A stretch of DNA of 52,163 nucleotides from a virus. Positions 1,980 to 40,625 of the stretch are shown here, piece by piece. The stretch is from IMG/VR virus record IMGVR_UViG_3300025888_000001; one strand, written 5' to 3'. Under the pieces are notes generated by a model that worked only from the letters and a program-made list of their open reading frames with translations, had not been told where the DNA came from and searched no databases. Numbering within the stretch: the first letter of the stretch is position 1; each line of letters starts with the position of its first letter. Position numbers and translations under genes: made by a program.

Positions 1980-2818
1980 GCAACGATAAAGAATTGAAAG
2001 CCATTATTCACGAAGTAATTTGGCAATATTGTTACGGTAAGGGAGAAACAGATGCTTTATTTAATTACAAAGATATTGGCGATGCAGCAAAAGAGATAAC
2101 AGAATTGTATTTCCAATCTGAATCCTTTGAGCAGAAACCGAGCGATGAAGATATTAATAATGCAGCAACGAATTATGTTGATGAATTAACATCACAGAAT
2201 GAGTTTACACGTCAACTTGTTTTTAATGCCTACAAGTCAGGCGCAACCGAAATGCCACAGCCGGAGAAGCCAATAGAGAAAGGGGAAACATTAACCGAAT
2301 CAGAACAAGGTGAACTCGCTTATTTAACTGAGCGATTACAAAACGATTCTGCTCGCATGACACAAGAAGAATGGTCAAATCTGGCTGAGTTACGTGACAA
2401 GGGAGCTATTATACAGGTATATGATGAGAATTATTTGAAAAAATGCAGAGATAAAGCAATACTACATATTGAAGATATTAAAGATGTACTTAAAGACGCT
2501 GCCCAGTCCAAGCAGAAAGAGCAGGAGAAGAAAACGGAAGAAGAAATTCAACATGGTATTCCATTCAAATGTCCTGTATGTGGAGAAGCCATACAATATG
2601 GACTTTCAGAGACAAGTAGAAAGTTATTTGCTACATCAAGACTATTTGCAAATCACTCACAGCCGGAGAAACCAAGAGAACTGACAGATGAAGATATTGA
2701 AAAAATAGCCGATACAATGAATTTTGGATCTGGATATATAGGCACAGCAAACAAATTTAATTGGACATTTGGTGCAAAGTGGTATCGTGATCAGTTATCC
2801 CCCAAAGCAAATAAATAA
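1976..2818 (+). CDS. Hypothetical acidic protein with one CxxC motif
   Basis: 280-aa ORF containing FKCPVCGEAIQYG. No family recognised. Confidence 0.55.
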   Translation: MSNDKELKAIIHEVIWQYCYGKGETDALFNYKDIGDAAKEITELYFQSESFEQKPSDEDINNAATNYVDELTSQNEFTRQLVFNAYKSGATEMPQPEKPIEKGETLTESEQGELAYLTERLQNDSARMTQEEWSNLAELRDKGAIIQVYDENYLKKCRDKAILHIEDIKDVLKDAAQSKQKEQEKKTEEEIQHGIPFKCPVCGEAIQYGLSETSRKLFATSRLFANHSQPEKPRELTDEDIEKIADTMNFGSGYIGTANKFNWTFGAKWYRDQLSPKANK

Positions 2819-2832
2819 CTAAAAATACGGAA

Positions 2833-2955
2833 ATGGGAACAGGAAGTGCAATAATTATTTTGTGTATATGGATAATCATAGCTGCTATATTTATTTCTTC
2901 TGCGTTGCATGATATTGCAAAGGCACTAAATGAGATAGCACGTAAAATGAAATAA
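2833..2955 (+). CDS. Small single-pass membrane protein (40 aa)
   Basis: MGTGSAIIILCIWIIIAAIFISSAL... More plausible than the minus-strand ORF 2757..2972 that shadows it. Confidence 0.35.
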   Translation: MGTGSAIIILCIWIIIAAIFISSALHDIAKALNEIARKMK

Positions 2956-2983
2956 GCAACTTGAATAATCAATAACAGAAGAA

Positions 2984-3190
2984 ATGGAAGAACTAGATCC
3001 TAAAGCAAAAGCCTTTATCTTGTGGTTGGATGATCCTAAAAGTCCCTTTGATACAGTTTTTAATGGGACAGACAAGTCACTGCCGCGAATATATTACCGC
3101 AAAGGAATGTCTGATAAGACGTGGATGCTCGAAGATGTTTGGGATCATTGGATTAAAGAAGTTGATAAATATCAATTGAAAATATATTAA
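2984..3190 (+). CDS. Hypothetical protein
   Basis: 68-aa ORF followed by a hairpin plus T-run. Confidence 0.5.
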   Translation: MEELDPKAKAFILWLDDPKSPFDTVFNGTDKSLPRIYYRKGMSDKTWMLEDVWDHWIKEVDKYQLKIY

Positions 3191-3212
3191 TAATCTTTAC
3201 GAAAAATCTCTC

Positions 3213-3238
3213 AAAGGTCGGTAATCCCGGCCTTTTTT
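3213..3238 (+). terminator. Rho-independent terminator closing the early gene block
   Basis: aaaggtcgg / taatc / ccggccttt stem-loop (one G-U pair) followed by tttttt. Confidence 0.6.
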
Positions 3239-3562
3239 GTTGAAAAATACATCATTCGTGGTAAAAACTTCTTATCTATAATGTTTCTAAATAAGGAAAT
3301 CAATTCTAAATTGCCATCGTTTTTCATAGTACTTAGGTTTTAGGGTTCCCAGGGGAGCGATCCAGAAACAAATGATGGTTAATCCCCCTGGTTTTTTAAA
3401 GACAAATGAAATTAGTGAAAAGGTCAATATGATACGCAAACCAAATAAAAAGGCAAAATTAAAGCCTTTTAAAGAAAAGAGTTTGTTTAAAAGACTTGAA
3501 TCAGAAAAGTACAGGAAGATTAACCGAGAGAAAAAGAGAAATGGCTAAAAATAAGTCTTAAT

Positions 3563-3871
3563 ATGTCAAGAGGCGGAAAAACAAGTGGATCATTTAAGAA
3601 AGGCGAAGCGAAAGGTAAACCAAAAGGTGCTTTAAACAGGACAACTAAGCAGTCAAGGGAGTTTCTTGAGTTTATAATGTTTGGGCAGCTCGATAATATG
3701 AATGCTGCTTTAAATACTCTTTACACTAAAGATCAATCTCGCTATTTAGATGCTTGCTCTAAATTATTTGCTTATGTATTACCGAAGAAAACTGATGTTA
3801 CAAGCGACAATAAGCCAATAATTCCGATACTTCCTGCTGTGACAATTAAAAGGCATTCAAATGTTAACTGA
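3563..3871 (+). CDS. Putative terminase small subunit
   Basis: Basic N-terminus GKPKGALNRTTKQSREFLEF. Lies immediately upstream of, and overlapping, the large terminase. Confidence 0.5.
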   Translation: MSRGGKTSGSFKKGEAKGKPKGALNRTTKQSREFLEFIMFGQLDNMNAALNTLYTKDQSRYLDACSKLFAYVLPKKTDVTSDNKPIIPILPAVTIKRHSNVN

Positions 3872-5336
3872 AATATTAGAACAAGAATTTAGTGATCCTC
3901 AAATGGATGTATTTGAGAGTACGGCATCTATTAATTTATTTATGGCTGGGACTGGATCGGGTAAAACACATTTAGATGGTTTAATATCCAAGCAACTTAT
4001 ATCTGAATTTCCTGAATGCAAAGGTGGAATATTTGCAAATACCTACGATCAATTAAATACGGCAACCCTTCTTCGTATTCGTGAATATTGGTCCAGTACA
4101 GGAATGACTGAATGGACAAAAGAGAATCCTTCAGGGGTTTATGTTTCTGGAAAAGAACCCCCAACGTACTGGGAGAAATGCAAGCGCAATTTTGATCGTT
4201 TTAATAATATTATTTCATTTTGTAATGGGGGGTTAATATTTACGGGTTCATTGGATAATGCCATTATGCATTCTGGAAAAGAAATGGCATGGTGCTTGCT
4301 AGACGAGACAAAGGATTCTAAGGAAGAAGACGTAAAAGAAGTTATACTTACGAGACTTCGTCAACCCGGAATGTACTTGGTAAATGGCGAAATACTTAAT
4401 CGTGGAAATCAGTCACAACAGTGGAATCCTTTATATATCTCAACTTCTCCAGCAAAAACTCCGTGGATTTCGGAATGGTTTGAACTAGAAAAATATATTA
4501 TAGAGATTTCATCATTAATCTTCTCGGATAAGACATATTTTAAAAAACAAATTGGCAATAAATTTGTAACGATATCATCTACTTATCATAATGTTCGTAA
4601 CGTGGGGGAGAATTACATTGATAATATTTTAGCCAATAATACAAAAGAAAAGGGGAAGGCTTTGATATATGGCCATCCTTTCGCGGTAACTGGAGGAGAA
4701 TTTTATTCATCATTTGATCGTTTAAAACATGTAATCAAAGCGAAATACGATCCTGATTTGCCATTGCACTTATCATTTGACCAAAATACTGTTCCTTACA
4801 ATTCATGCGGAATATCTCAGGTTAAAAAGGTTGGCAATGATTGGCATTGCACGTTTATAGATGAAATAGCACTGGAAAACCCCCGTAACTCTACCCAGGA
4901 AGTTTGTGAGGAGTTCAAAATGCGATACCCGAATCATAAATCAGGATTGTTTTATTACGGTGATGCTTCAGGGAAGAACCGGTCAACGATGAATAAAGAC
5001 TTTCAGCATCATTATGCTATTGTAGCTTTTGAACTCAGGAAATATCTTAATAACAATTCAGACAGGACTCTTTTCAGTAATCCTTCACTGGTTAAAAGAC
5101 GAGACTTTATGAATCTGATCTTTGAGGAGAAAAAACCTATTAGGATCTTCTTTGATGAAAGCTGTAAAAAGATGATTGCTGATATGATGTACACTAAACA
5201 GGCTCTGGATGGCGGGAAAGATAAGCACATCGTTACCGATAAAGACTCAGGAGAGAAGTATCAAAAATACGGTCATATGGGAGATTTAATAGAGTATCAA
5301 TGCGTTGAACTATTTAAAAACTATTATGATGGTTAA
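3861..5336 (+). CDS. terL: Terminase large subunit
   Basis: Walker A FMAGTGSGKTH, Walker B-like CLLDETKD, 491 aa. Position upstream of the portal. Confidence 0.85.
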   Translation: MLTEILEQEFSDPQMDVFESTASINLFMAGTGSGKTHLDGLISKQLISEFPECKGGIFANTYDQLNTATLLRIREYWSSTGMTEWTKENPSGVYVSGKEPPTYWEKCKRNFDRFNNIISFCNGGLIFTGSLDNAIMHSGKEMAWCLLDETKDSKEEDVKEVILTRLRQPGMYLVNGEILNRGNQSQQWNPLYISTSPAKTPWISEWFELEKYIIEISSLIFSDKTYFKKQIGNKFVTISSTYHNVRNVGENYIDNILANNTKEKGKALIYGHPFAVTGGEFYSSFDRLKHVIKAKYDPDLPLHLSFDQNTVPYNSCGISQVKKVGNDWHCTFIDEIALENPRNSTQEVCEEFKMRYPNHKSGLFYYGDASGKNRSTMNKDFQHHYAIVAFELRKYLNNNSDRTLFSNPSLVKRRDFMNLIFEEKKPIRIFFDESCKKMIADMMYTKQALDGGKDKHIVTDKDSGEKYQKYGHMGDLIEYQCVELFKNYYDG

Positions 5337-19310: not shown

Positions 19311-19960
19311 ACAACAAAATCGCCAATATCATTAAAGGGTACGTTGAAGATTTAACCTGGATCGATAAGATTTCAGGATTAGTCCAAACGGTTGTCGTAA
19401 TGGTTCCGAGTGGAAAAGACACAGCGGTTCAAAAAAGCTATCCTGTTTCATGTAACATAACTGCCGATGCGTGTAAAAAAGGCGGGTATCAGGATCTTTG
19501 TCCTGACTCAAAAAAGAAGTCGGTTGTTTATTTTGAGGATCGCGGAATACAAGAAGTTAGCCGTTATGGCAATAGAATAACGTTTAAATCTAATTTACGT
19601 TTAGTTGCATGGTTGAATTTATGCCTAATTTCTGATTCTTGTGGCACCTCAGGCGATTATGTTATTGATGTGATAAGATCATTACCAAATAGGCCATTTA
19701 GCGTACCGGGCTTTGTAAACATATCTATTGCATTAATAACACAGGCTGAAAGAGATGTTTCGATATTCTCAAAATACACTTACTCAGAAACTATGGTTCA
19801 GTATTTACTTTATCCATTTGATTTTTTTGCGTTAGATATTTCTATTGACTTTACGATACCGTGTGTTGATGCCGGAAGTTTATTACATCCTACCGGAAGT
19901 GTAGATGTTGACAGCACAACGGTATCTGTTGATGATCCTTTAGTTGCAGTTGATGATTAA
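19307..19960 (+). CDS. Hypothetical tail-module protein (possible tail tube or tail completion protein)
   Basis: 217 aa. Assigned by position only. Confidence 0.3.
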   Translation: MNNKIANIIKGYVEDLTWIDKISGLVQTVVVMVPSGKDTAVQKSYPVSCNITADACKKGGYQDLCPDSKKKSVVYFEDRGIQEVSRYGNRITFKSNLRLVAWLNLCLISDSCGTSGDYVIDVIRSLPNRPFSVPGFVNISIALITQAERDVSIFSKYTYSETMVQYLLYPFDFFALDISIDFTIPCVDAGSLLHPTGSVDVDSTTVSVDDPLVAVDD

Positions 19961-19970
19961 AATAAATGAT

Positions 19971-22900
19971 ATGAAAAAGATTTTAATATTTGGGTTTTTA
20001 ATTTGCTTTTTAATATCCTGTGCTACAGTAGATTCTGGAAAGTCTATAAAAGATAATAAGCACCCGATTAAAACAAGAACTATTGGCGATGTCGGGACTG
20101 TTCCCATGAACGTGGGTACTAAACTTAATGTAGCATTTCCAATTATTAATACTGCTATTGACAGGGTAAATCTTAATACTGCTAATATTTTATTAAGAGC
20201 ACCAATTAATAATGCCTCTCTAACAGGATTAACAACTCTTGAACAACTAAAACTATCTGCCGGAGGCGTTACGATTACGGCCATCACTTCTGATGGGACA
20301 TATATTCATTTCTGGTCAGGATTAACAGAACTTGCAACCATCCCTGGCAGTAGTGGTTCAACATGGGGAACAATCACAGGGACACTATCAAGTCAAAATG
20401 ATTTAACAAGCGCCTTAAATGCGAAAGCTCCTGTTTCGACTACAATGACCACTTCTCACGCTGCCAATGCAATTACATCAACAGATATAACACATTGGGG
20501 TTTAGCTTACGGTTGGGGCAATCATGCTTCTGCGGGGTACATTGCAGGAACACGGACAGTAAATGGTCATCCACTTTCAAGCAATGTTACAGTTACTGCA
20601 GCAGACCTAAATCTGGGTTATGTAACAAATGAGAGCAAGGCTACAATGTTTACCAATTCCTCTTTTACTGGGACATTTACTCTAGGGGGGACTGTCTTAG
20701 CTTCAACAGCAGCTAACTTGAATGTTTTATATAATACTTCGGTTACTCCTACAATACTTAGTTATCTTGATGCTACAAGTCCTATACAAGCTCAATTTGG
20801 TGGTAAAGAGCCATTATTAGGCAATCCACTTGTTACGGGATATGTATTATCTTCTACAACCGGTGGAGTTAGATCATGGGTTGCTCCCGGAGGAGACCTT
20901 AGTATTTACAGACGATTAAATAATCATGATTCTTTAAGTACCTTACAAGAAAAAGCATATAGTTCATTGAGTAGCAAACCTACTCTCGGAACAGCTTCAG
21001 CTCAGGATGTAGGATATTTTGCCACCGCTGCACAGGGAACTGATGCACGTACTCCCGTTTCTCACGCACATGGGAATATAACTAATGTCGGAGCAATAGG
21101 ATCGACTGCTGCTTTACCTGTGATAACTACAACTTCGGGTGTTCTGACGGTCAGCTCTTTTGGTATATCAGCTGGTACCTTTACTCAGGGTAATGATTCA
21201 AGATTAACTTATTCTGATGCTACTTCATCTATACAGGGACAGTTAGATGCAAAGATCAATGCTGATTATGTCATTGAGAAAATTGCAAGTACTTATTATG
21301 CCCGTCCATCGGGAAGTCTTACCGCTTATTCAAATGCGAGTGCTTCTTCAGTTATTAATTCGGCACTTGGTCAACTTACTTCAGGGGGTAAAATATATTT
21401 GAATTTTAAGGGTGTTGTTTGGGATAACTGTGATTCAATAAGAATCAGTTACAATAACATAACAATCGAAGGGTCTGATAAATACAGTGGTGGCTTAAAA
21501 ATAAAGGCGAATAAGGATATAGGAAGAACTAGCACTATGTCAATGTTTTGGATTGCCTATGGCGTGAATAATGCAACATTTCGTAATCTTCAGATAGACG
21601 GTAATAAGTCCAATCAATCTAAGGCGTGGGAGGTTACTAATGTTAATGCGAGAATTTGTGGTATTACTGGTTTTGGAGATGGTACGGATAAGGTATTGAT
21701 TGAAAATTGTTATGTGCATGATTTTACACAGTATGGAATTTATCTTACCAATTTATTTGGGTCTATAATTAGAGATAACGAGGTTAAAGATAATGATGAA
21801 AACAATATTACAAACTTTGCGTTTAGCAGCGTGATTGAAAGAAATAAATTTAGTGGAAGTAATTCTGTCAGTGTTAGTTGTTATGAAGATGATAATATTG
21901 TTAGAGACAACGAATTTGGTAACATGACAGGTCATCTTCGTGATAACTTTGCACTTGCATTTGAAGTCGATGAAGGAGATGCTACTAATGTAGCTACAAG
22001 ATGTAAGGCAATACATAATACAATAACCGGGACTAATATAACTACCGGGATTGGATTGGCGGCAGGTTCATTAAACTGTGAAATATCAGATAATACAATT
22101 GATAATATAACAGGAGGAACTTGGTGTAGTGGCATATCTATGCACTCAGACTCAGGAACTGTAGTTCATAATAATAAGATAACAAGGATTAGTCCGGGAG
22201 TTGCAATAGAATTATCTGGGAGTCAGTCAGATGTTATTTCAGAAAATAATATTTCTTTTTCAACAATGGATTACGGTATACACCTGCAAGATTTGGGAGC
22301 AGTATATGCCACAAATAATATAATTAGAAGCAATACTATACAAACACATAACTTCGCTTTATGGCTAGCAGGGCACTCTACTGATAATATAATAATAAAT
22401 AATATTATAAATATTCCTACGATTTATGCTGGTACAAAGGAATTATTGGAAGCTGCAACTGCTATAAATAATATATATATGAATAATTACGCACCCGGAA
22501 CGAGTGGTTCTGGTTGGAAAATTGGTTGGTTAAATAATACCGGATTATGGCAGACTCATGCAACAGCAACGTCAGATGGTTTAACAACAGGATTAATAAC
22601 CCCCGGTTCCCAAAACATAACAGTAACATCAGCAAGTGCATACGATATAATTACATTACCCACTGCAAGTGCAACAACGATAGGAACAAAAATAACTGGA
22701 ATAGTGACAGCTAATGGTTGCGAATTAAGGGTTCCAGATACACAAGCAATCACTGTTTATATTAACGGAGTAACTACCAATGTGGAGTCGGATATTCCTG
22801 CCAATAGTTCTTTTGAGGTTACTTGTATTGATGCTACACATTGGATATTGAAAGCATGGACGAACTTAGGAGCACCAATTACGGCAATAGTACCAAATTC

Positions 22901-23933
22901 AGTATCATTCATAACAACATGGAATACTGAAAATGCCGGATCAGCAACTAAGGTTATTGTAATACCCACTACCGGGGCAGGTTATGACTTTTATGCGGAT
23001 TGGGGAGATGGTAGTGCAGAGGCACATATAACAGGAACAGCACCAAGTACAACACATACCTATGCAACAACTGGTGTAAAAACAATTAGTATAAGGGGTG
23101 CATTCCCAAGAATATATTTTAATAATGGTGGAGATAAGTTAAAACTTCTTTCTGTTGCTCATTGGGGAACGGGTGTTTGGAGTTCAATGCAGAATGCTTT
23201 TTATGGATGTGCAAACCTGACTGGCACTTATACTGATTATCCAAATACTGCATCAGCAACTTCTATGGCCCAAATGTTTCGTGGATGTACTGCATTTAAT
23301 AGTGCTGTTAATTTCAATACTGAAAATGTAACAGATATGTCTTTAATGTTTACTGCCTGTACGGTATTTAATCAATCTGTTGCAACATTCAATACTGTAA
23401 AAGTAGTAAATACAAATAGTATGTTTAACGGATGTGCTGCATTCAACCAATCTGTTGCTAGTTTTAATACTGCAAGTATAGAAGATTTATCCAGTATGTT
23501 TAATGGATGTACGGTATTCAATCAATCTGTTGCTAATTTCAATACTGCAAATGCGACTACCATTGCTAGTATGTTTGTCAATTGTGCTGCATTTAACCAA
23601 TCAGTTGCAGGATTCAATACTACAAAAGTAACTTCTATGTCTAGTATGTTTAACGGGTGTACACATTTTAACCAATCAGTTGCAGGATTTGATGTAACAT
23701 CCGTAACTACTATGACTAATATGTTTAATAGTTGTACAGCATTTTCAACAGCTAATTACGATGCTTTATTAATATCATTTGGGGCACAGGCAGTACAAAA
23801 TACTGTAACTCTAAATGTTCCGGTTACTAAATATACTGGTGGCGGGGGTGCGGCAACAGCAAGGGCACATTTAGTATTAGCAACAGGTAGTGGCGGACAT
23901 GGGTGGACAATAACAGATGCAGGAACGGTTTAG
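19971..23933 (+). CDS. Giant fibre-like protein: lipobox N-terminus + tail-fibre-like region + right-handed beta-helix + C-terminal 26-residue surface-protein repeats (DUF285/TIGR02167-like)
   Basis: MKKILIFGFLICFLISC; WGTITGTLSSQNDLTSALNAKA and SHAHGNITNVG fibre-type motifs; beta-helix turns such as NITIEGS, FRNLQIDGN, IENCYVHDF, IRDNEV; about 7 repeats of MFxGCxxFNQSVAxFNTxxVTx. Confidence 0.65.
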   Translation: MKKILIFGFLICFLISCATVDSGKSIKDNKHPIKTRTIGDVGTVPMNVGTKLNVAFPIINTAIDRVNLNTANILLRAPINNASLTGLTTLEQLKLSAGGVTITAITSDGTYIHFWSGLTELATIPGSSGSTWGTITGTLSSQNDLTSALNAKAPVSTTMTTSHAANAITSTDITHWGLAYGWGNHASAGYIAGTRTVNGHPLSSNVTVTAADLNLGYVTNESKATMFTNSSFTGTFTLGGTVLASTAANLNVLYNTSVTPTILSYLDATSPIQAQFGGKEPLLGNPLVTGYVLSSTTGGVRSWVAPGGDLSIYRRLNNHDSLSTLQEKAYSSLSSKPTLGTASAQDVGYFATAAQGTDARTPVSHAHGNITNVGAIGSTAALPVITTTSGVLTVSSFGISAGTFTQGNDSRLTYSDATSSIQGQLDAKINADYVIEKIASTYYARPSGSLTAYSNASASSVINSALGQLTSGGKIYLNFKGVVWDNCDSIRISYNNITIEGSDKYSGGLKIKANKDIGRTSTMSMFWIAYGVNNATFRNLQIDGNKSNQSKAWEVTNVNARICGITGFGDGTDKVLIENCYVHDFTQYGIYLTNLFGSIIRDNEVKDNDENNITNFAFSSVIERNKFSGSNSVSVSCYEDDNIVRDNEFGNMTGHLRDNFALAFEVDEGDATNVATRCKAIHNTITGTNITTGIGLAAGSLNCEISDNTIDNITGGTWCSGISMHSDSGTVVHNNKITRISPGVAIELSGSQSDVISENNISFSTMDYGIHLQDLGAVYATNNIIRSNTIQTHNFALWLAGHSTDNIIINNIINIPTIYAGTKELLEAATAINNIYMNNYAPGTSGSGWKIGWLNNTGLWQTHATATSDGLTTGLITPGSQNITVTSASAYDIITLPTASATTIGTKITGIVTANGCELRVPDTQAITVYINGVTTNVESDIPANSSFEVTCIDATHWILKAWTNLGAPITAIVPNSVSFITTWNTENAGSATKVIVIPTTGAGYDFYADWGDGSAEAHITGTAPSTTHTYATTGVKTISIRGAFPRIYFNNGGDKLKLLSVAHWGTGVWSSMQNAFYGCANLTGTYTDYPNTASATSMAQMFRGCTAFNSAVNFNTENVTDMSLMFTACTVFNQSVATFNTVKVVNTNSMFNGCAAFNQSVASFNTASIEDLSSMFNGCTVFNQSVANFNTANATTIASMFVNCAAFNQSVAGFNTTKVTSMSSMFNGCTHFNQSVAGFDVTSVTTMTNMFNSCTAFSTANYDALLISFGAQAVQNTVTLNVPVTKYTGGGGAATARAHLVLATGSGGHGWTITDAGTV
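23187..23760 (+). repeat. In-frame tandem repeats of about 78 bp (26 aa), about 7 units
   Basis: Recurrent ttyaaycaatcWgttgc...atgtttaayggRtgtrc blocks with a 78-nt period. Confidence 0.8.
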
Positions 23934-34349: not shown

Positions 34350-35942
34350 ATGCCGGGAATAGGAATAGGACTTTGGGTTGGTAAAAAAAGGGGAGGTGTT
34401 ACATGGACTCCACAATGGAATCCTGCAAATCCTCTATTAAGGGATAGTGAGGGTACTGTTCAAAATTTAAGATGTGTTCTTTTAATTTTGGGGGTTTACT
34501 ATTGTTATGAAGAGGACTTTTCAACAGTTTGGGAAATAAGGGTAAGGACTTCGGCAGACGGCATTACATGGTCGGCAGCATCTGGACCGCTATTTGCAAG
34601 AGGAAATGTAGGAACTTTTGATAGAGGAGGGCAGGCTGATCCGACAGTTATTTACGATGGGCCGGGTGATTGGAAGATGTGGTATGATGCCACTCCCGGA
34701 TCTGACGCTAACTGGACAGTCGGATATGCAACTTCAACAGATGGAATAACTTGGACTCAAGTCGGAAAAGTCATAGATAAAGGTGTTTCAGGTCAATGGG
34801 ATGATAATTCTATTCATCATTCTGTATGTATAAAAAACGGAACAACATATTATTTATATTATAGTGGGGCTAATACAACAGATTCAACTTTATTCGTCAA
34901 ACATATAGGATTAGCTACCTCATTAGACGGGATTAATTTCACAAAATTAGGAATTGTAATTCCTTCTGGAAGTGGGTCTGATTGGGATAAAAATTATGTT
35001 CGTCCTTCTAATCCGGTAAAAATGTATAATGCTTGGTATATGTGGTATTGGGGAAATGACATCACAAATCATGCAATGGGATTAGCTGTTTCCAAAGATC
35101 TTATTACATGGACAAAAAAAGGCAATGTAATTGCAAATCATTCAACAGCATCAACTGCCTTATTAAGAACAGGGACTGATGTAAAAGATAAGGTAATTAA
35201 GTTATGGGTTTGTGATTATGAAAATCAATCAACTAAAAAAAGATATATGATTCCAGAAGTAAGCATCGGGACTCCTATATCTCCTTTTGTTTATAATCAG
35301 GGGTTTGGAATATTGCCAACAACTGCTGGTGCTCCAGTTACAAAGGCTGCTAATTATATATATTTATATAGAGTGACGCTTGCAGCAATATCAACTCCTA
35401 CTACTATAAGACTATTTGTTAAATGGTATAGTGTAATTGGGAATATAAAAGCAGCTCTTTATCAAAATAATGTCAATACACCTACATCTTTATTGAAACT
35501 GACAGATGAAAAAGCATGGTCAACAATACCCGCAAATTCGTGGGTTGTTTTTAATATAATCAGTCCGACACAATTAAATGCAGGTGATTATTGGATTGCG
35601 TTTTTTTCATCAATAAATTACGATACACAAAGAGGTGCAGGAGGGGCAAATAATCATGGGAATCTTTCATTGGCTTATGGTGCATTTCCTGATCCAATTT
35701 CAGCGCCAACAAACCAAGCATTTAATATAGGTGATTTCGCTCTTACAGGTGATATGGAATTTGGTTATGGTGTTGCACTTGCAAGCGAACCAGCAAATGT
35801 ATATTTCAATGGAGTAAAAGGGGTTAAAAAAGCGACAGGAGCAGAAGTTGTTGCTCTATATGATTGGTTTTGGATAGGAGGTTATCTATATGTAAAAACT
35901 AATGAAGATACAGATATTAATTATCTTATAACTTATGATTAG
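34350..35942 (+). CDS. Glycoside-hydrolase-like five-bladed beta-propeller protein (GH43/32/130 superfamily-like) with a C-terminal beta-sandwich
   Basis: Blade-like repeats: GQADPTVIYDG..WKMWYDA, WDDNSIHHSVCIKNGTTYYLYYSG, WDKNYVRPSNPVKMYNAWYMWYWG, GLAVSKDLITWTK. Confidence 0.5.
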   Translation: MPGIGIGLWVGKKRGGVTWTPQWNPANPLLRDSEGTVQNLRCVLLILGVYYCYEEDFSTVWEIRVRTSADGITWSAASGPLFARGNVGTFDRGGQADPTVIYDGPGDWKMWYDATPGSDANWTVGYATSTDGITWTQVGKVIDKGVSGQWDDNSIHHSVCIKNGTTYYLYYSGANTTDSTLFVKHIGLATSLDGINFTKLGIVIPSGSGSDWDKNYVRPSNPVKMYNAWYMWYWGNDITNHAMGLAVSKDLITWTKKGNVIANHSTASTALLRTGTDVKDKVIKLWVCDYENQSTKKRYMIPEVSIGTPISPFVYNQGFGILPTTAGAPVTKAANYIYLYRVTLAAISTPTTIRLFVKWYSVIGNIKAALYQNNVNTPTSLLKLTDEKAWSTIPANSWVVFNIISPTQLNAGDYWIAFFSSINYDTQRGAGGANNHGNLSLAYGAFPDPISAPTNQAFNIGDFALTGDMEFGYGVALASEPANVYFNGVKGVKKATGAEVVALYDWFWIGGYLYVKTNEDTDINYLITYD

Positions 35943-36410: not shown

Positions 36411-36530
36411 ATGATACTACTAAAAGATAGTTTGGTTTTTGAAGGATACATAGGAATAGCGATTGTCATCGGTTGCGGGATTGCTATATTATTTGCAGTT
36501 AAGAAACTTTTTAAGGATTTGAAGAAGTGA
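36411..36530 (+). CDS. Small single-pass membrane protein (39 aa)
   Basis: YIGIAIVIGCGIAILFAV. Its stop overlaps the GTG start of the next gene (GTGA). Confidence 0.3.
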   Translation: MILLKDSLVFEGYIGIAIVIGCGIAILFAVKKLFKDLKK

Positions 36531-37294
36531 GCGAAAATAAAAAACTTACGTTAGTCGATAGGGCTTTTGCTTTACCGGATTCGGAAAAAGAGTTTGGAAT
36601 GAAGATTGCCGATCATAAACTGATCTGTAATGTTCTTGATGACCATATGGATTCCATAATGGATAATGTGGATGAAAAGATACTTAAGACTTTACAGAGC
36701 GATACCCTCACTGATACAATTGCCGATAAGGTCTATGAGAAACTTGCTGAGTTCAATGCCCCTGTATTGTTAAAACTTGAAACGTTAATAAATGGTCAGA
36801 CTGAAATTGCTGAAGATATTTTTGAAATCAAAGAAAGGCTTTCTGCAACAGAAGAGAAAGTAGGGATAGAAGAAAAGCGGATTGAAGGTATTGATAAGCG
36901 GCTCGATGCAAAGAAAAAAAGAATCGAACGTCTCGAATCAGAAATGAGAATGTTGCAGCCGGAATCAATAGAAGAATATTCAATTGAGATACATAAGGTT
37001 AAACCAATTTTAGATAAAATTGTTAAAATGTTTTCATGGTGGCGAATAGCTATTTATATTCTGATAGTGGCCATACTTGCCGCTTTAGTGGTATTGACTT
37101 TACATAAAAATGGGTATCTCGGACAGTTAAGAAATGATAAACAATCTTATAAGGAATGGGCTAAAGAACTTGAAACACAACAGATAAAGGGTTATTCAAC
37201 AATCACAAGAGGAAGCACAGCTTATAAAATGACCGATGCAGAGATTGACACCCTTGAAAATCAAACATTAAGAACTATAAAGGCAAGGAAATGA
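36527..37294 (+). CDS. Coiled-coil protein with a C-proximal TM helix
   Basis: GTG start. EEKRIEGIDKRLDAKKKRIERLESEM, and TM segment WWRIAIYILIVAILAALVVLTL. Confidence 0.45.
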   Translation: MSENKKLTLVDRAFALPDSEKEFGMKIADHKLICNVLDDHMDSIMDNVDEKILKTLQSDTLTDTIADKVYEKLAEFNAPVLLKLETLINGQTEIAEDIFEIKERLSATEEKVGIEEKRIEGIDKRLDAKKKRIERLESEMRMLQPESIEEYSIEIHKVKPILDKIVKMFSWWRIAIYILIVAILAALVVLTLHKNGYLGQLRNDKQSYKEWAKELETQQIKGYSTITRGSTAYKMTDAEIDTLENQTLRTIKARK

Positions 37295-37737
37295 TCCAGG
37301 ATTATTTTTCCCTAAACGAAATATTCTGCCCTGAAGTTGTAAAACATTACGGTGAGTTTGCATGGAACTTCTTAGATGTGCGACTCTCGATAACTCTCGA
37401 GGCTATCCGGATGCGACTAAATAAAGTTATTTATGTGAATGACTATGCCGTTCATGGGAAGATGACCCAAAGGGGTTTCCGTTGTGTGCAATGTCAGTTA
37501 ATGAAAGATGTTTATAAAAGTGGAGAATTATTTACCGATCCGCACGCTTTAGGGAAGGCAATGGATTTTTCTGTAGAGGGATTAGTTGCTGAAGAGGTCA
37601 GGCAGTATATAATTAAAAATAGAAACTTGTGGCCATATCCAATCAGACTCGAAAATTCAGTGAATTGGGTTCACCTGGATCTTTACAACAATAATTATAA
37701 TGATAAAGTAATATTTTTTGAGAAACCTAATAAATAA
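37291..37737 (+). CDS. Peptidase M15-family endolysin (D-Ala-D-Ala carboxypeptidase / L-Ala-D-Glu peptidase-like)
   Basis: DPHALGKAMDF (H..G.A.D) and NWVHLD metal-ligand motifs. About 148 aa. Confidence 0.65.
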   Translation: MIQDYFSLNEIFCPEVVKHYGEFAWNFLDVRLSITLEAIRMRLNKVIYVNDYAVHGKMTQRGFRCVQCQLMKDVYKSGELFTDPHALGKAMDFSVEGLVAEEVRQYIIKNRNLWPYPIRLENSVNWVHLDLYNNNYNDKVIFFEKPNK

Positions 37738-37741
37738 TAAA

Positions 37742-37942
37742 ATGGACATATTAACAATTCTTATTGTAATCGTAATTGTCGGAGTTTTACTCTGGTTGGT
37801 CAATTCGTATATCCCAATGCAGGCAGGAGTAAAAAAGATTCTTAATGTAGTGGTTATCATACTACTTATTATTTGGCTATTATCGGCCTTCGGAGTATTT
37901 CACTATTTAAGTGGAATCAATACACCTAAATTCAGAAGCTAA
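37742..37942 (+). CDS. Two-TM small membrane protein (holin candidate)
   Basis: MDILTILIVIVIVGVLLWLVNSYIP...VVVIILLIIWLL. Directly downstream of the endolysin. Confidence 0.4.
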   Translation: MDILTILIVIVIVGVLLWLVNSYIPMQAGVKKILNVVVIILLIIWLLSAFGVFHYLSGINTPKFRS

Positions 37943-38733
37943 TGTGCTTTAAGAAAAAACCGCCGGTTATAGTGGCACCGACAAAAAGAAGATTGTTAAC
38001 CTTTGGACGTAATAAGTACGGAGGCGGAAATGATCTTAATGGATGCGTGAATGACTCTTTAAATTTGTCCGATAAAGCGAAGGGGATGTATTCTGATTTT
38101 GATATTAGGAAACTTCAGGATTATGACGTTACCGCTAACAGGTATTTAGAAGATGCAAAAAACGCTATTCAGTTACTTAGTCCCGGTGCAACTGTTTTAT
38201 TTCTGGCTGACTCTTGTTTCTCAGGTACGGTCACACGCGCGGGAACATGTATGGGATTAATCGATATTAAGCACCCGACAAAGAATCGATTCTATAATCC
38301 TGGATTACCACCGCGGACAATTAAAAACAAAGTGCTTTCAAATGAGAACATGAACCACATTCTTATAAGCGGATGCACTGATCATGAATATTCAAATGAT
38401 GCTTATATCAATTCAAAATATGCAGGTGCATTCACGTTTTTTGCGGTTATGGCACTCGAAATGGGAATGACATATAAACAATGGTTTGACGAAATAAGAA
38501 AGTACCTTCCTTCAAAAGACTTCAATCAATCGCCTCAACTCGAAGGACCGGAATATCTGATCAATAGAAAAGTCTTTGAAGATGAAACTTTAGTTATTCA
38601 TAATTCGAGTCATGGATCTTACACGTATGATAAGTCAGGTGATGAAGAAGACGGGCAAGATGAGGGACTATATTTTGACCGGCTTTTAATTGATGACGAA
38701 ATTGCGGAAATATTAACTCAGATTCCAAAATAA
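37942..38733 (+). CDS. Caspase/metacaspase-like (peptidase C14) protein with non-canonical segment order
   Basis: Cys motif LADSCFSGT at residues 88-96 precedes the His motif LVIHNSSHG...SGDEEDGQDE at residues 217-241. GRNKY...LNGCVNDS and ISGCTDHEYSNDA...GAFTFF are also C14-like. Confidence 0.6.
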   Translation: MCFKKKPPVIVAPTKRRLLTFGRNKYGGGNDLNGCVNDSLNLSDKAKGMYSDFDIRKLQDYDVTANRYLEDAKNAIQLLSPGATVLFLADSCFSGTVTRAGTCMGLIDIKHPTKNRFYNPGLPPRTIKNKVLSNENMNHILISGCTDHEYSNDAYINSKYAGAFTFFAVMALEMGMTYKQWFDEIRKYLPSKDFNQSPQLEGPEYLINRKVFEDETLVIHNSSHGSYTYDKSGDEEDGQDEGLYFDRLLIDDEIAEILTQIPK

Positions 38734-38749
38734 CTTGTACATTTGATAC

Positions 38750-39598
38750 ATGAAGATTATTGGCATATACCAGATCCAAAGTAAAATAAAACCAACTCGA
38801 ATTTATATAGGGTCTTCTAGGGATATTACAAAAAGGTGGAATGATCATTTAAGATTATTAGGAAAAAATAAACATCACTCTAGTAAACTTCAGAGTCATT
38901 TTAATAAGTACGGTAAAGACGATTTTCAGTTTTCTATTTTAACAGGATGCGATAAAGAAAATCTCATTCCTAATGAGCAGTTTTTTATTGATTTCTATAA
39001 GCCATATTTCAACAGTGTTTTAAAAGTATCATACATTCCTGATTATATAGGTAGGGTATCTGGAAATAAAGGTAAAAGAGGAATGTTTCATCATACTGAA
39101 GAACATAAAAGCAAAATGAGTCAATTAAAACTCGGCGTTTCTAGGTCTGAAGAAACTAAACAAAAAATAAGTAACACACTAAAGGGTAAGCTAATCGGTG
39201 ATAAAAATCCTTTTTTTGGGCAACATCATACAAAAGAAAGTATGCAGAGGGCAAGTGAAAAAAAGAAAGGTATTCCATCTCCAAATAAGGGCAAGAAAGG
39301 TTTGCTTGTCCATACAGAAGAATGGAAGAGAGAACATAGTGAAAAGGTGAAAGGGAATAAAAATTATATGTTTGGGAAACACCATACTGAAGAAACTTTG
39401 CAAAAACTAAGAGGGGTAAAATCAGAAGAACACAAAAGGCATTTAAGCGAAGCTCATAAAGGCAAAGGGATTGGCGTTAATAATCCGTTTTTTGGTAAAA
39501 CCCATACCGAAGAATGCAAACAAAGAATGAGTCTGGCACAAAAAGAAAGATTCAAGAGAGAAAAACTTAATAAACTTAATTTATTAACTAATAATTAA
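38750..39598 (+). CDS. GIY-YIG homing endonuclease with NUMOD3-like repeats (second copy)
   Basis: GIYQIQS...YIGSSRDITKRW..H, NEQFFID, and repeated G.HHTEE.K.K.S units. Confidence 0.8.
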   Translation: MKIIGIYQIQSKIKPTRIYIGSSRDITKRWNDHLRLLGKNKHHSSKLQSHFNKYGKDDFQFSILTGCDKENLIPNEQFFIDFYKPYFNSVLKVSYIPDYIGRVSGNKGKRGMFHHTEEHKSKMSQLKLGVSRSEETKQKISNTLKGKLIGDKNPFFGQHHTKESMQRASEKKKGIPSPNKGKKGLLVHTEEWKREHSEKVKGNKNYMFGKHHTEETLQKLRGVKSEEHKRHLSEAHKGKGIGVNNPFFGKTHTEECKQRMSLAQKERFKREKLNKLNLLTNN

Positions 39599-39601
39599 AA
39601 C

Positions 39602-39868
39602 ATGAAAGCGAATTTTTTAAACTTGAATTGGAAAGACTTTGGGAAAGGTGCAATTGTGGCTGTTTTGACGGCTGTGCTTGCAACCTTAACGACATTATTA
39701 CAGACCGGAGTATTATTTGATAAAGCTAGCCTGCCGGTAATTGGAACAGCTGCTATGAGTGCCTTTATAGCATACATTGCTAAGAACCTTTTTACAAATT
39801 CACAAAATCAGTTCTTAGTTACTGAGAAAAACGCAACTCCAGAACAAGTAAAACCAGTACAGAAATGA
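39602..39868 (+). CDS. Two-TM membrane protein (second holin-like candidate)
   Basis: GAIVAVLTAVLATLTTLL and VIGTAAMSAFIAYIA. Confidence 0.4.
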   Translation: MKANFLNLNWKDFGKGAIVAVLTAVLATLTTLLQTGVLFDKASLPVIGTAAMSAFIAYIAKNLFTNSQNQFLVTEKNATPEQVKPVQK

Positions 39869-40338
39869 AAAAACTAATCACACTCATTCTTTTTGCTTGT
39901 GGCTTATTTGCCGCCACAAATGCACAGATCAATTTTAAAGGGTTCTGGCACGTGAATGTAAGCAAAGACTTCTTAACACAACAGGAGGGCTTAAAAGCTA
40001 TCGCAGCACCCGTTGTTCTTGTCCGTCCTGCCTTTACCATGAATGCTCTTAAAGTTATGAAATCAGACATTCCCGGTCAATCTCTGGATGTTTCTTCTTT
40101 ACAATCCGGGGGCATAGGGGTAAGTTTTGTGTTTTACAACGGGACGGTGACTAACTTTTCTATTGATGCACTCGCATTAACTCCCTTGGATATGAGTGGC
40201 GCAACTCCTTTTAGTATTTCGCCAGCTCTGGCACTTAAGGGATGGAATATTATAAGTGCAGGCATTGGAAGAGATACCGGGATTAAGAAGTGGTTTGGAT
40301 TGATTAACGTAACGTATAGTTTCACGACAGTAAAATAG
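39865..40338 (+). CDS. Secreted protein (type I signal peptide)
   Basis: MKKLITLILFACGLFAATNAQ, then a beta-rich sequence. ATGA overlap with the upstream gene. Confidence 0.45.
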   Translation: MKKLITLILFACGLFAATNAQINFKGFWHVNVSKDFLTQQEGLKAIAAPVVLVRPAFTMNALKVMKSDIPGQSLDVSSLQSGGIGVSFVFYNGTVTNFSIDALALTPLDMSGATPFSISPALALKGWNIISAGIGRDTGIKKWFGLINVTYSFTTVK

Positions 40339-40432: not shown

Positions 40433-40593
40433 CTTAAAGTATTGATAATAAAGAAATAATATTTAGAATCAATATAAATTGTGTTTTGGCGTAATTATTC
40501 CAATATTTTATACATTCAGTTTCGAAAGGATAATTTAAATTTGTTCAGGTTTGTTTTTCCTATAATTAATATTTATTGTCAAATAGAGTAGGG

Positions 40594-40625
40594 GAGCAAA
40601 CTTTAATAGGTTTGCTCTTTTTATT
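40594..40625 (+). terminator. Second hairpin plus T-run in the 290-bp intergenic gap
   Basis: gagcaaac / tttaatag / gtttgctc followed by tttttattt. Confidence 0.5.

Follow-up and report, generated by a model that had tools for sequence, protein, structure and literature searches.

Can a phage carry a caspase-type protease whose catalytic histidine lies in a segment shifted to the C-terminus, and what would such an enzyme contribute to a group of genes that resembles a lysis cassette? These questions are raised by a gene at 37942..38733 (+) of the IMG/VR virus record IMGVR_UViG_3300025888_000001, a stretch of 52,163 nucleotides (the window) from a tailed phage (~52 kb) that encodes a terminase, a portal protein and a protein resembling a tape measure. 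The window has a GC content of ~35%, with no compositional break at this gene. A first-pass annotation had described the product, 263 amino acids (aa) followed by a stop codon, as a caspase- or metacaspase-like protease with its His-bearing segment relocated to the C-terminus and its gene translationally coupled to a holin-like gene. The open reading frame, a match to Pfam family PF00656, a non-collinear alignment with metacaspases and an AlphaFold2 (AF2) model together identify it as a permuted metacaspase-like cysteine protease.

With a confidence a little above even, we consider the locus as a whole to be best explained by a competent permuted metacaspase-like protease that serves a late lysis module. 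The parts of this explanation differ in strength. That the protein is a folded, active permuted C14 protease is highly probable from its sequence and model, while for a role in lysis we place the chances for and against at about equal weight.

Order of the conserved C14 blocks

The protein matches the Pfam peptidase C14 profile (PF00656) in two stretches, as anticipated at first pass (E 6.6e-9; 36.2 bits against a cut-off of 21.4), the best of which places residues 83-201 on profile positions 120-224 of 233. The arrangement is visible in a phmmer match to yeast Yca1 (4f6o) among PDB sequences (E 3.9e-11), where query residues 15-55 and 212-259 align with Yca1 residues 53-95 and 126-178, and query residues 77-98 and 139-202 align with residues 179-200 and 274-338. 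A profile of the family built from 86 homologs placed the blocks non-collinearly in the same way on each of four solved metacaspases, namely Yca1 (E 1.8e-23), C. glabrata MCA1, GSU0716 and AtMC4. We divide the protein into block A (residues 13-76), block B (β3, His, the L3 loop and α3; residues 212-263) and block C (β4, Cys, the p10-like part and β6; residues 77-207). Both the phmmer alignment and the family profile give the order A-C-B where canonical metacaspases have A-B-C, which bears out the proposal that the C14 blocks are not collinear. The C14 order β1-α1-β2-α2-β3(His)-α3-β4(Cys)-...-β6 is not kept, and the His segment is C-terminal. At the level of sequence, the protein is a C14 family homolog with a re-wired chain.

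The individual elements, all on the + strand, can be placed exactly on the window. A phage-specific N-terminal extension, residues 1-12 (MCFKKKPPVIVA; 37942..37977), carries Cys2 and a basic patch, with M1 and C2 near-invariant. Block A (37978..38169) comprises β1, α1 with the S1-pocket residues C35 and D38, β2 and α2. Block C (38170..38562) follows with β4 (D90 and Cys92), a loop at residues 94-138, a p10-like part formed by ISGCTDHEYSNDA (residues 142-154) and GAFTFF, and β6 (QSPQLEG). A linker of residues 208-211 (38563..38574), delimited by the C-termini of related proteins and by secondary-structure assignment (DSSP), leads from the ancestral C-terminus ('..NRKVF') into the relocated block B (38575..38730), which contains β3, S222, His224, the acidic L3 loop with its three-stranded sheet, and α3. 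The codons of catalytic Cys92 (tgt, 38215..38217) and His224 (cat, 38611..38613) lie where the first-pass annotation had put them, and all the blocks it had quoted are present (LNGCVNDS, LADSCFSGT, ISGCTDHEYSNDA, GAFTFF, QSPQL and HNSSHG...GDEEDGQDE...IDDE).

The junctions of the rearrangement are defined by comparison with three standard-order sister proteins (P0117, P0118 and P0120) of 36-38% identity. The sisters read '..LRPGD/ILLVHYSGHG...ENIPDGA/IVVLLFDSCFSGT...' (IVVLLFDSC..) and end '...NRKVFT', while the window protein reads '...LSPGA/TVLFLADSCFSGT...' (TVLFLADSC..) and later '...NRKVFEDE/TLVIHNSSHG...TQIPK'. Standard-order sisters, with termini of the form '..KVFT' or '..VFI', stop exactly at the point where permuted proteins run on into block B. 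These junctions indicate that B was excised between the similar short motifs PGD and PDGA and rejoined ~3 residues past the ancestral C-terminus, so that the clean relocation of the His segment proposed earlier is supported; judged from the same junctions, the rearrangement cost no other material. The accompanying term 'partial circular permutation' holds for the B-C sub-segment only. A circular permutation of the whole domain is ruled out because A-C-B is no rotation of A-B-C, and for the whole domain the change is a transposition of B and C.

The block order also separates the protein from named metacaspase classes. In a type III architecture p10 precedes an intact p20; here block A is N-terminal, and p10 lies between the Cys and His parts. 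Orthocaspases are characterized by the absence of p10; here a p10-like block is found, with ISGCTDHEYSNDA aligning within Yca1 ~270-338 and fitting the SGCxDxQTSADV-type pattern of the metacaspase p10 consensus block (PMC3734836).

Predicted fold, active site and constraint

An AF2 model computed on the 86-sequence alignment has a mean predicted local distance difference test score (pLDDT) of 86.7 and a predicted template modelling score (pTM) of 0.86, with only the loop 94-108 below a pLDDT of 50. The C-terminal segment is not disordered, consistent with the first-pass proposal: pLDDT is 91-98 over residues 211-263, which form the strand leading to His, a three-stranded sheet and a helix. DSSP assigns in block A strand 16-22 (β1), helix 35-49 (α1), strand 53-59 (β2) and helix 65-77 (α2), and in block C strands 84-90 (before Cys92), 140-143 and 199-201 (β6), with β5 and a hairpin and two helices between the first and the last of these. 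A short helix (204-207) is followed by strand 216-222 ahead of His224, and block B continues with strands 224-229, 239-244 and 248-250 (the three-stranded sheet) and helix 251-258. The His-Gly pair H224-G225 thus follows strand 216-222 as C92 follows strand 84-90, and the overall pattern agrees with the published description of the caspase fold, including the three-stranded sheet between β3 and α3.

The model is a confident single domain in which every canonical element of the caspase fold is found. Foldseek matches in the PDB are solely to clan CD folds (metacaspases, GSU0716, caspases, a paracaspase and legumain), with a best E of 2.6e-6. The TM-score of ~0.5 against both the PDB and BFVD is not evidence against the fold because a sequential aligner superposes blocks A and C only. 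We infer that the canonical caspase/haemoglobinase fold, whose sheet order is 2-1-3-4-5-6, would be kept, with the chain returning beneath the sheet after β6, B supplying β3 between β1 and β4, and His224 adjoining Cys92 as predicted from the model. β6 is antiparallel and delivers the chain to the bottom edge of the sheet, the side from which β3 has to set out, so that an intramolecular return appears geometrically reasonable.

This geometry bears on an alternative in which B fills the empty β3 slot of a partner subunit, and the active site requires a dimer or oligomer. Such a domain swap draws on the fact that caspases are obligate dimers through β6 (PMC4357240), the strand directly after which B is attached; the linker is short (~12 residues with one helical turn), and transposing a central strand is topologically demanding. 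The feasible intramolecular return speaks against it, as does the confident AF2 monomer (pTM 0.86, with B at pLDDT 91-98), which would be unusual if a monomer could not hold B, and metacaspases are active as monomers (PMC4357240). We therefore regard a swapped assembly as quite improbable and continue with the reading in which one chain would complete its own active site.

The residues required for catalysis are uniformly retained. His224, Gly225, Cys92 and Ser94 occur in 53/53 permuted proteins; Cys92 is in addition invariant in the 86 homologs, and His224 is invariant among homologs. C35, D38, S222 and D90, likewise in 53/53 permuted proteins, correspond by motif register (GCxND, SxHG and DxC) to Cys92, Asp95, Ser156 and Asp211, the proposed S1-pocket residues of TbMCA2 (PMC4357240). 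Conservation of this metacaspase pocket predicts Arg/Lys specificity, and the enzyme probably cleaves after Arg or Lys as metacaspases do. The acidic loop after His is kept (D240, E241 and D251), with D240, D251 and D252 conserved; their register against the four Asp residues of the allosteric Ca2+ site of TbMCA2 (D173, D189, D190 and D220) is approximate. Within the flexible loop 94-138 of block C, R116-F117 is near-invariant and is a possible autoprocessing site.

Block B is the most conserved of the blocks, with pairwise identities that average 0.57 among A-C-B proteins and 0.58 among the viral A-B-C ones. Codon comparisons gave B the lowest proportion of nonsynonymous differences (pN) of all blocks, 0.14-0.15, at a saturated proportion of synonymous differences (pS) of 0.74-0.89; we report pN and pS in place of the substitution-rate ratio dN/dS because of this saturation. 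The relocated segment is therefore under the strongest purifying constraint, unlike a detached or useless tail.

Distribution and origin of the rearranged form

Searching 5.8 billion proteins yielded 931 hits, and block order was called by block-wise BLAST on the best 120. The permuted order is conserved, with 115 of these 120 being A-C-B, 3 A-B-C and 2 C-B fragments. A-C-B proteins of 42-85% identity lie on >100 independent contigs from JGI, ENA, Logan and IMG/VR. A full HMMER scan of 1.84 billion representatives gave 15,670 C14-type hits (367 at E<=1e-30), and the A-C-B proteins within its top 150 form about 30 clusters at 50% identity. These data dispose of the suspicion that the gene is an artefact (an assembly chimera, a frameshift or a mis-called reading frame) or a decaying pseudo-enzyme, for which nothing other than the oddity of its block order speaks. 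Repeated occurrence on independent contigs is at odds with an artefact, and invariant catalytic and pocket residues, the strongest purifying selection on B and a confident model are at odds with a pseudo-enzyme. With the homolog order, the viral census described below, the invariant residues and pN/pS in agreement, this explanation is effectively refuted, and we give it a negligible probability.

To describe the host range, block HMMs were built and run on loci from IMG/VR and from GTDB species genomes. Of the classified reading frames, 45/79 in viral loci were A-C-B and 29 were A-B-C; the genome loci had 3/83 A-C-B and 76 A-B-C. All three genomic A-C-B cases are on contigs of 2.4-4.9 kb from metagenome-assembled genomes and, given such short contigs, are most simply phage fragments, so the permuted form is essentially phage-only. 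It is also uncommon among deposited sequences: tblastn found no A-C-B gene in 50,697 deposited phage genomes, and the one relative it did find has the A-B-C order and comes from an uncultured phage of 485 kb. In BFVD, the only proteins with such a fold are giant-virus caspases and metacaspases. The block HMMs retrieve permuted proteins easily, whereas Pfam sees them only faintly because of the permutation, a point that matters for annotation.

A neighbour-joining tree was built from re-ordered A+B+C blocks of 131 non-redundant sequences. One pure clade holds 32 of the 34 non-redundant A-C-B sequences, and the remaining two share one contig and are adjacent to the clade, whose nearest A-B-C neighbours are all viral. 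The pure clade and its all-viral neighbours argue for a rearrangement within a phage-borne metacaspase lineage, which by this tree appears to have occurred once or very few times. Support for a strict single origin is weak, with a bootstrap of 1/50 owing to the two sequences of one contig outside the main clade.

The N-terminal extension offers a second marker of the lineage. This segment of ~20 aa opens with M(x)C and continues with basic residues; 51/53 A-C-B and 22/33 viral A-B-C proteins have it, against 1/76 of the cellular relatives, which begin at β1 directly ('MKKA...'). Its M-C (or M-T/A-C) start with aromatic and basic residues is near-invariant in phage proteins of both architectures. 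The lineage would have gained the extension before the rearrangement. By analogy with the N-terminal region of TbMCA2, on which the gatekeeper idea is modelled, the extension could possibly be a pseudo-substrate gatekeeper, or else a membrane tether.

The rearrangement would have cut B (β3/His/L3/α3) from between α2 and β4 and rejoined it a few residues past the ancestral C-terminus. The likely route would start with a duplicated B-C part, from which the first B was then lost in frame between the PGD/PDGA repeats on either side of it. Among 268 proteins, nine large proteins have tandem forms: eight are ABCABC (P0199, P0203, P0208, P0212, P0215, P0225, P0234 and P0261; 637-1303 aa), and P0223 is ABCBC. 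Internal duplications therefore do occur in the wider family. In a separate case, opposite ends of the 44.9-kb record IMGVR_UViG_3300029288_000312 carry two different permuted paralogs (L041 and L047), each preceding genes of the TM75 and SP150 types described below; the pair could have arisen by duplication of the module, could be a terminal repeat whose copies have diverged, or could come from a mixed assembly.

Genomic setting, proposed role and known systems

In the window the protease gene lies after tail-fibre and glycosidase genes, inside a tightly packed run. The gene at 37291..37737 (+), 148 aa, is endolysin-like (phrog_894 endolysin, E 3.5e-18). Its earlier description as an M15 endolysin stands for the endolysin part; no Pfam hit was obtained, and M15 refers to an H-x6-D...H motif recognised by eye only. 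No PDB match was found for this endolysin or for DUF5675, a family that occupies its slot elsewhere. The next gene, 37742..37942 (+), encodes a small holin-like protein with two transmembrane (TM) segments, of 66 aa from the ATG at 37742 or 74 aa from a TTG at 37718, and its TAA overlaps the protease ATG by a shared A (TAATG at 37940-37944), as had been claimed. Two hydrophobic segments in 66-74 aa agree with the earlier label 'two-TM holin-like', and no match to an annotated holin family was found in Pfam or PHROG. Both the 'M15' and the 'holin' labels are plausible.

Downstream of the protease is a GIY-YIG/NUMOD3 homing endonuclease gene at 38750..39598 (+) (PF01541, PF07460 and phrog_314), which begins 17 nt past the protease stop, beside the relocated and most conserved block B. 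It is followed by a second holin-like protein of 88 aa (39602..39868, +) with two hydrophobic segments, in a position held elsewhere by the 2-TM family TM75, and by SP150 (39865..40338, +), a secreted beta-rich protein that is homologous across loci and has a C-terminal aromatic residue. The SP150 family (~150 aa) is conserved and phage-only, with C-termini such as ...YTF and ...NFN, and it has no Pfam, NCBIfam or PDB match. An AF2 model on nine close homologs showed long beta-hairpins at low confidence (pLDDT 57.7), and SP150 may be an outer-membrane beta-barrel-like lysis partner. A terminator-like hairpin at 40590..40621 (+), with a notable 14-pair stem and a T-run, may end the module transcript; such sites are no more frequent in the region than chance predicts, and a promoter scan gave no signal above chance.

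No spanin was recognised among the module genes. A 255-aa coiled-coil protein with one TM segment near residue 170 (36527-37294), directly before the endolysin, has a weak Rz-like spanin hit (E 0.048) and may be an i-spanin-like component. A 530-aa protein at 34350-35942, just before the lysis module, shows weak similarity to GH130/GH43-like five-bladed propellers and may be a tail-associated glycosidase. The 1329-aa protein at 19944-23933 joins a right-handed beta-helix (NosD/Beta_helix) to DUF285 repeats at its C-terminus and probably serves as a tail fibre or depolymerase.

The proposed link to lysis is supported by gene context, which is conserved across dozens of loci. The upstream slot is filled elsewhere by at least five unrelated hydrolase families, including DUF5675/phrog_1501, Amidase_2, GH108, M15 and several endolysin/amidase PHROGs. 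In the loci that extend 1.2 kb or more downstream, SP150 comes after the protease gene in 26/45 permuted, 10/28 viral standard-order and 0/68 cellular loci, and TM75, which carries a conserved basic N-terminal tail, in 17/45, 12/28 and 0/68, respectively. Loci retrieved independently through SP150 likewise bear the module. Two of them (L170 and L171) have an SP150 65-81% identical to that of the window beside standard-order proteases of 26-30% identity, and occupation of the same slot by both architectures in closely related modules argues for functional equivalence; the permuted and standard forms would then be interchangeable.

The related loci also differ in several respects. Free-standing GIY-YIG/NUMOD3 homing endonucleases occur in the module at L002 (4947-5576), L004 (7051-7689), L009 (6855-7388) and L170 (4339-4995), and their intergenic position varies among loci. 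L170 contains in addition a BubE-family gene and a gene with an RF-1 domain (peptidyl-tRNA-hydrolase-like) at 2429-2797 and 3644-4012, inside its hydrolase/protease/SP150 module. Some carriers are crAss-like, with CrAss_Ring_1, CrAss_Ring_2 and crAss_MUZ nearby, and one has an integrase nearby. In a divergent clade, here called MTCFGK, genes for a sigma factor and two secreted proteins precede the protease gene, and a gene for a 3-TM protein comes after it, ahead of portal and head genes. At L030, a phage-encoded sigma-70 family (ECF-like) factor at 2676-3248 is directly upstream of the variant protease module and the head genes, where a late-gene regulator would be placed.

From this context we propose that the late module would comprise a cell-wall hydrolase, the protease, a small multi-TM holin-like protein and the secreted beta-rich SP150. 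The protease would build up in the cytoplasm late in infection and act at the lysis step on a membrane or envelope protein cut after a basic residue. The leading candidate substrate would be the basic N-terminal, cytoplasmic tail of the adjacent holin-like protein, with envelope proteins that become reachable once the holin has opened the membrane as the alternative; any one particular substrate is, at best, an unlikely choice. A more speculative extension, which we think doubtful, is a protease-gated lysis device, in which cleavage of the adjacent holin-like protein or SP150 behind a conserved basic residue would set off envelope rupture or carry it to completion. Regulation would come from the displaced His segment together with the M-C-basic N-terminus, and the device would be a viral counterpart of the principle 'caspase activates a pore-former'.

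The association with head and tail genes in some carriers raises the alternative that the enzyme works in morphogenesis, where it would process components of the head, portal or tail fibre or other virion or secreted phage proteins, and is unrelated to lysis. The gene adjoins portal and head-morphogenesis genes in the MTCFGK clade and at L062 and L065, lies between tail-fibre-like and crAss ring genes at L002, and in the window comes after the tail-fibre and glycosidase genes noted above. Yet it is ~30 kb from the window's portal and terminase, its constant neighbours are small membrane proteins and hydrolases rather than capsid genes, and the MTCFGK arrangement follows a late sigma factor, as the lambda lysis genes follow Q. 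Its absence from nearly all deposited phages, crAss-like ones included, is also unlike a core morphogenetic enzyme, and a role in morphogenesis seems improbable.

In a further alternative, an active permuted protease would serve host takeover or counter-defence by cutting a host immune or stress protein, and the lysis-gene site would be a usual late accessory position. Caspase-like proteases are prominent in bacterial immunity. The gene has the features of an accessory gene, being absent from almost all deposited phage genomes and surrounded by mobile homing endonucleases, and more than half of its upstream genes are not recognisable hydrolases. Across divergent phages the gene nevertheless keeps its slot, with a hydrolase on one side, a small multi-TM protein on the other and SP150 beyond, although the hydrolase family varies, and the protease start overlaps the stop of the 2-TM gene. 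Neither the protease nor any of five proteins encoded nearby matched a PADLOC defence model. Fusions of bacterial metacaspases to Amidase_2, reported along with metacaspase operons related to phages (PMC3501461), provide independent support for a link between metacaspases and cell-wall hydrolases. We consider counter-defence unlikely and prefer action at lysis.

Certain observations weigh against a competent permuted protease acting in lysis or against parts of its proposed history. Homology and the confidence of the model are the basis for placing His224 close to Cys92 and for the β1-β3-β4 order. All groups of this subfamily carry Arg or Lys at Cys+7, where the fourth Ca ligand (TbMCA2 D220) lies in canonical metacaspases, which makes calcium dependence uncertain. 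The A-B-C-B intermediate was not found among the 268 proteins, in which A-C-A-B was also sought with no case found, and the strict split between A-C-B and A-B-C has a bootstrap of 1/50 owing to the two A-C-B sequences from one contig. Only about 20/48 non-redundant upstream genes are recognisable as cell-wall hydrolases. The MTCFGK order, the chief caveat, fits a lambda-like lysis-cassette position but also an association with the head module, and synteny among related phages can reflect shared ancestry and not function.

The module shares with canonical phage lysis cassettes (holin, endolysin and spanin) its place in a late operon beside an endolysin gene, as well as the presence of small multi-TM proteins and of a secreted partner. 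We know of no caspase-fold protease in a canonical lysis cassette. The novelty suggested at first pass needs to be narrowed. Phage-encoded metacaspase had already been noted, with virome surveys listing viral 'metacaspase-1' genes without analysis (bioRxiv 10.64898/2026.01.21.700432), while the permutation and the module appear to be new; in a literature search of incomplete coverage we found no description of the permutation or of a caspase-fold protease in a phage lysis module. The locus defines a late module of three to four genes (cell-wall hydrolase, metacaspase-like protease, small multi-TM protein and secreted beta-rich protein), conserved and so far unstudied, in uncultured phages, some of them on crAss-like contigs, whose lysis mechanisms are largely unstudied. 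A protease step in lysis, if true, would be a new principle.

The best structural matches of the window protein are the type I metacaspases Yca1 (4f6o) and T. brucei MCA2 (4afr) and the bacterial GSU0716 (3bij), which share PF00656 with it. Common to all are the His/Cys dyad, the S1 residues C/D/S/D, the acidic loop after His and a p10-like SGCxDxxxSxDA block. The window protein differs in having its His segment after the p10 part and not before the Cys strand, in the ~20-aa phage extension that starts with M-C in place of a long prodomain, in a Cys-to-β5 loop far shorter than that of Yca1, and in Arg or Lys at Cys+7. Its standard-order phage relatives (P0117, P0118, P0120, L170 and L171) have the same M-C extension, the DSCFSGTxT[RK] motif, the slot and the TM75/SP150 partners, and differ in being collinear A-B-C and in terminating where permuted proteins enter B. 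Permuted and standard forms thus coexist in the same slot at about 26-38% identity, and their exact junctions help in reconstructing the path between them.

Reordering of the caspase fold with retention of activity has been achieved by engineering, in reverse caspase-3 and -6 and in circularly permuted caspase-2 (PMC7760212). In those artificial constructs p20 and p10 trade places at the natural cleavage site, and the segment of β3 and His is not relocated. The closest documented natural case is that of the type III metacaspases of algae, in which p10 precedes an intact p20 (Choi & Berges 2013, PMC3734836) and in which, as here, the sequence order is rearranged with the catalytic residues kept. 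Type III represents a simpler, whole-subunit swap, a true circular permutation found in eukaryotes, whereas the phage family splits p20 by a non-cyclic transposition that leaves block A at the N-terminus and places the His half behind p10. With a catalytic beta-strand moved to the end of the chain, this family provides a rare and clean natural experiment in how much re-wiring a classic alpha/beta fold tolerates.

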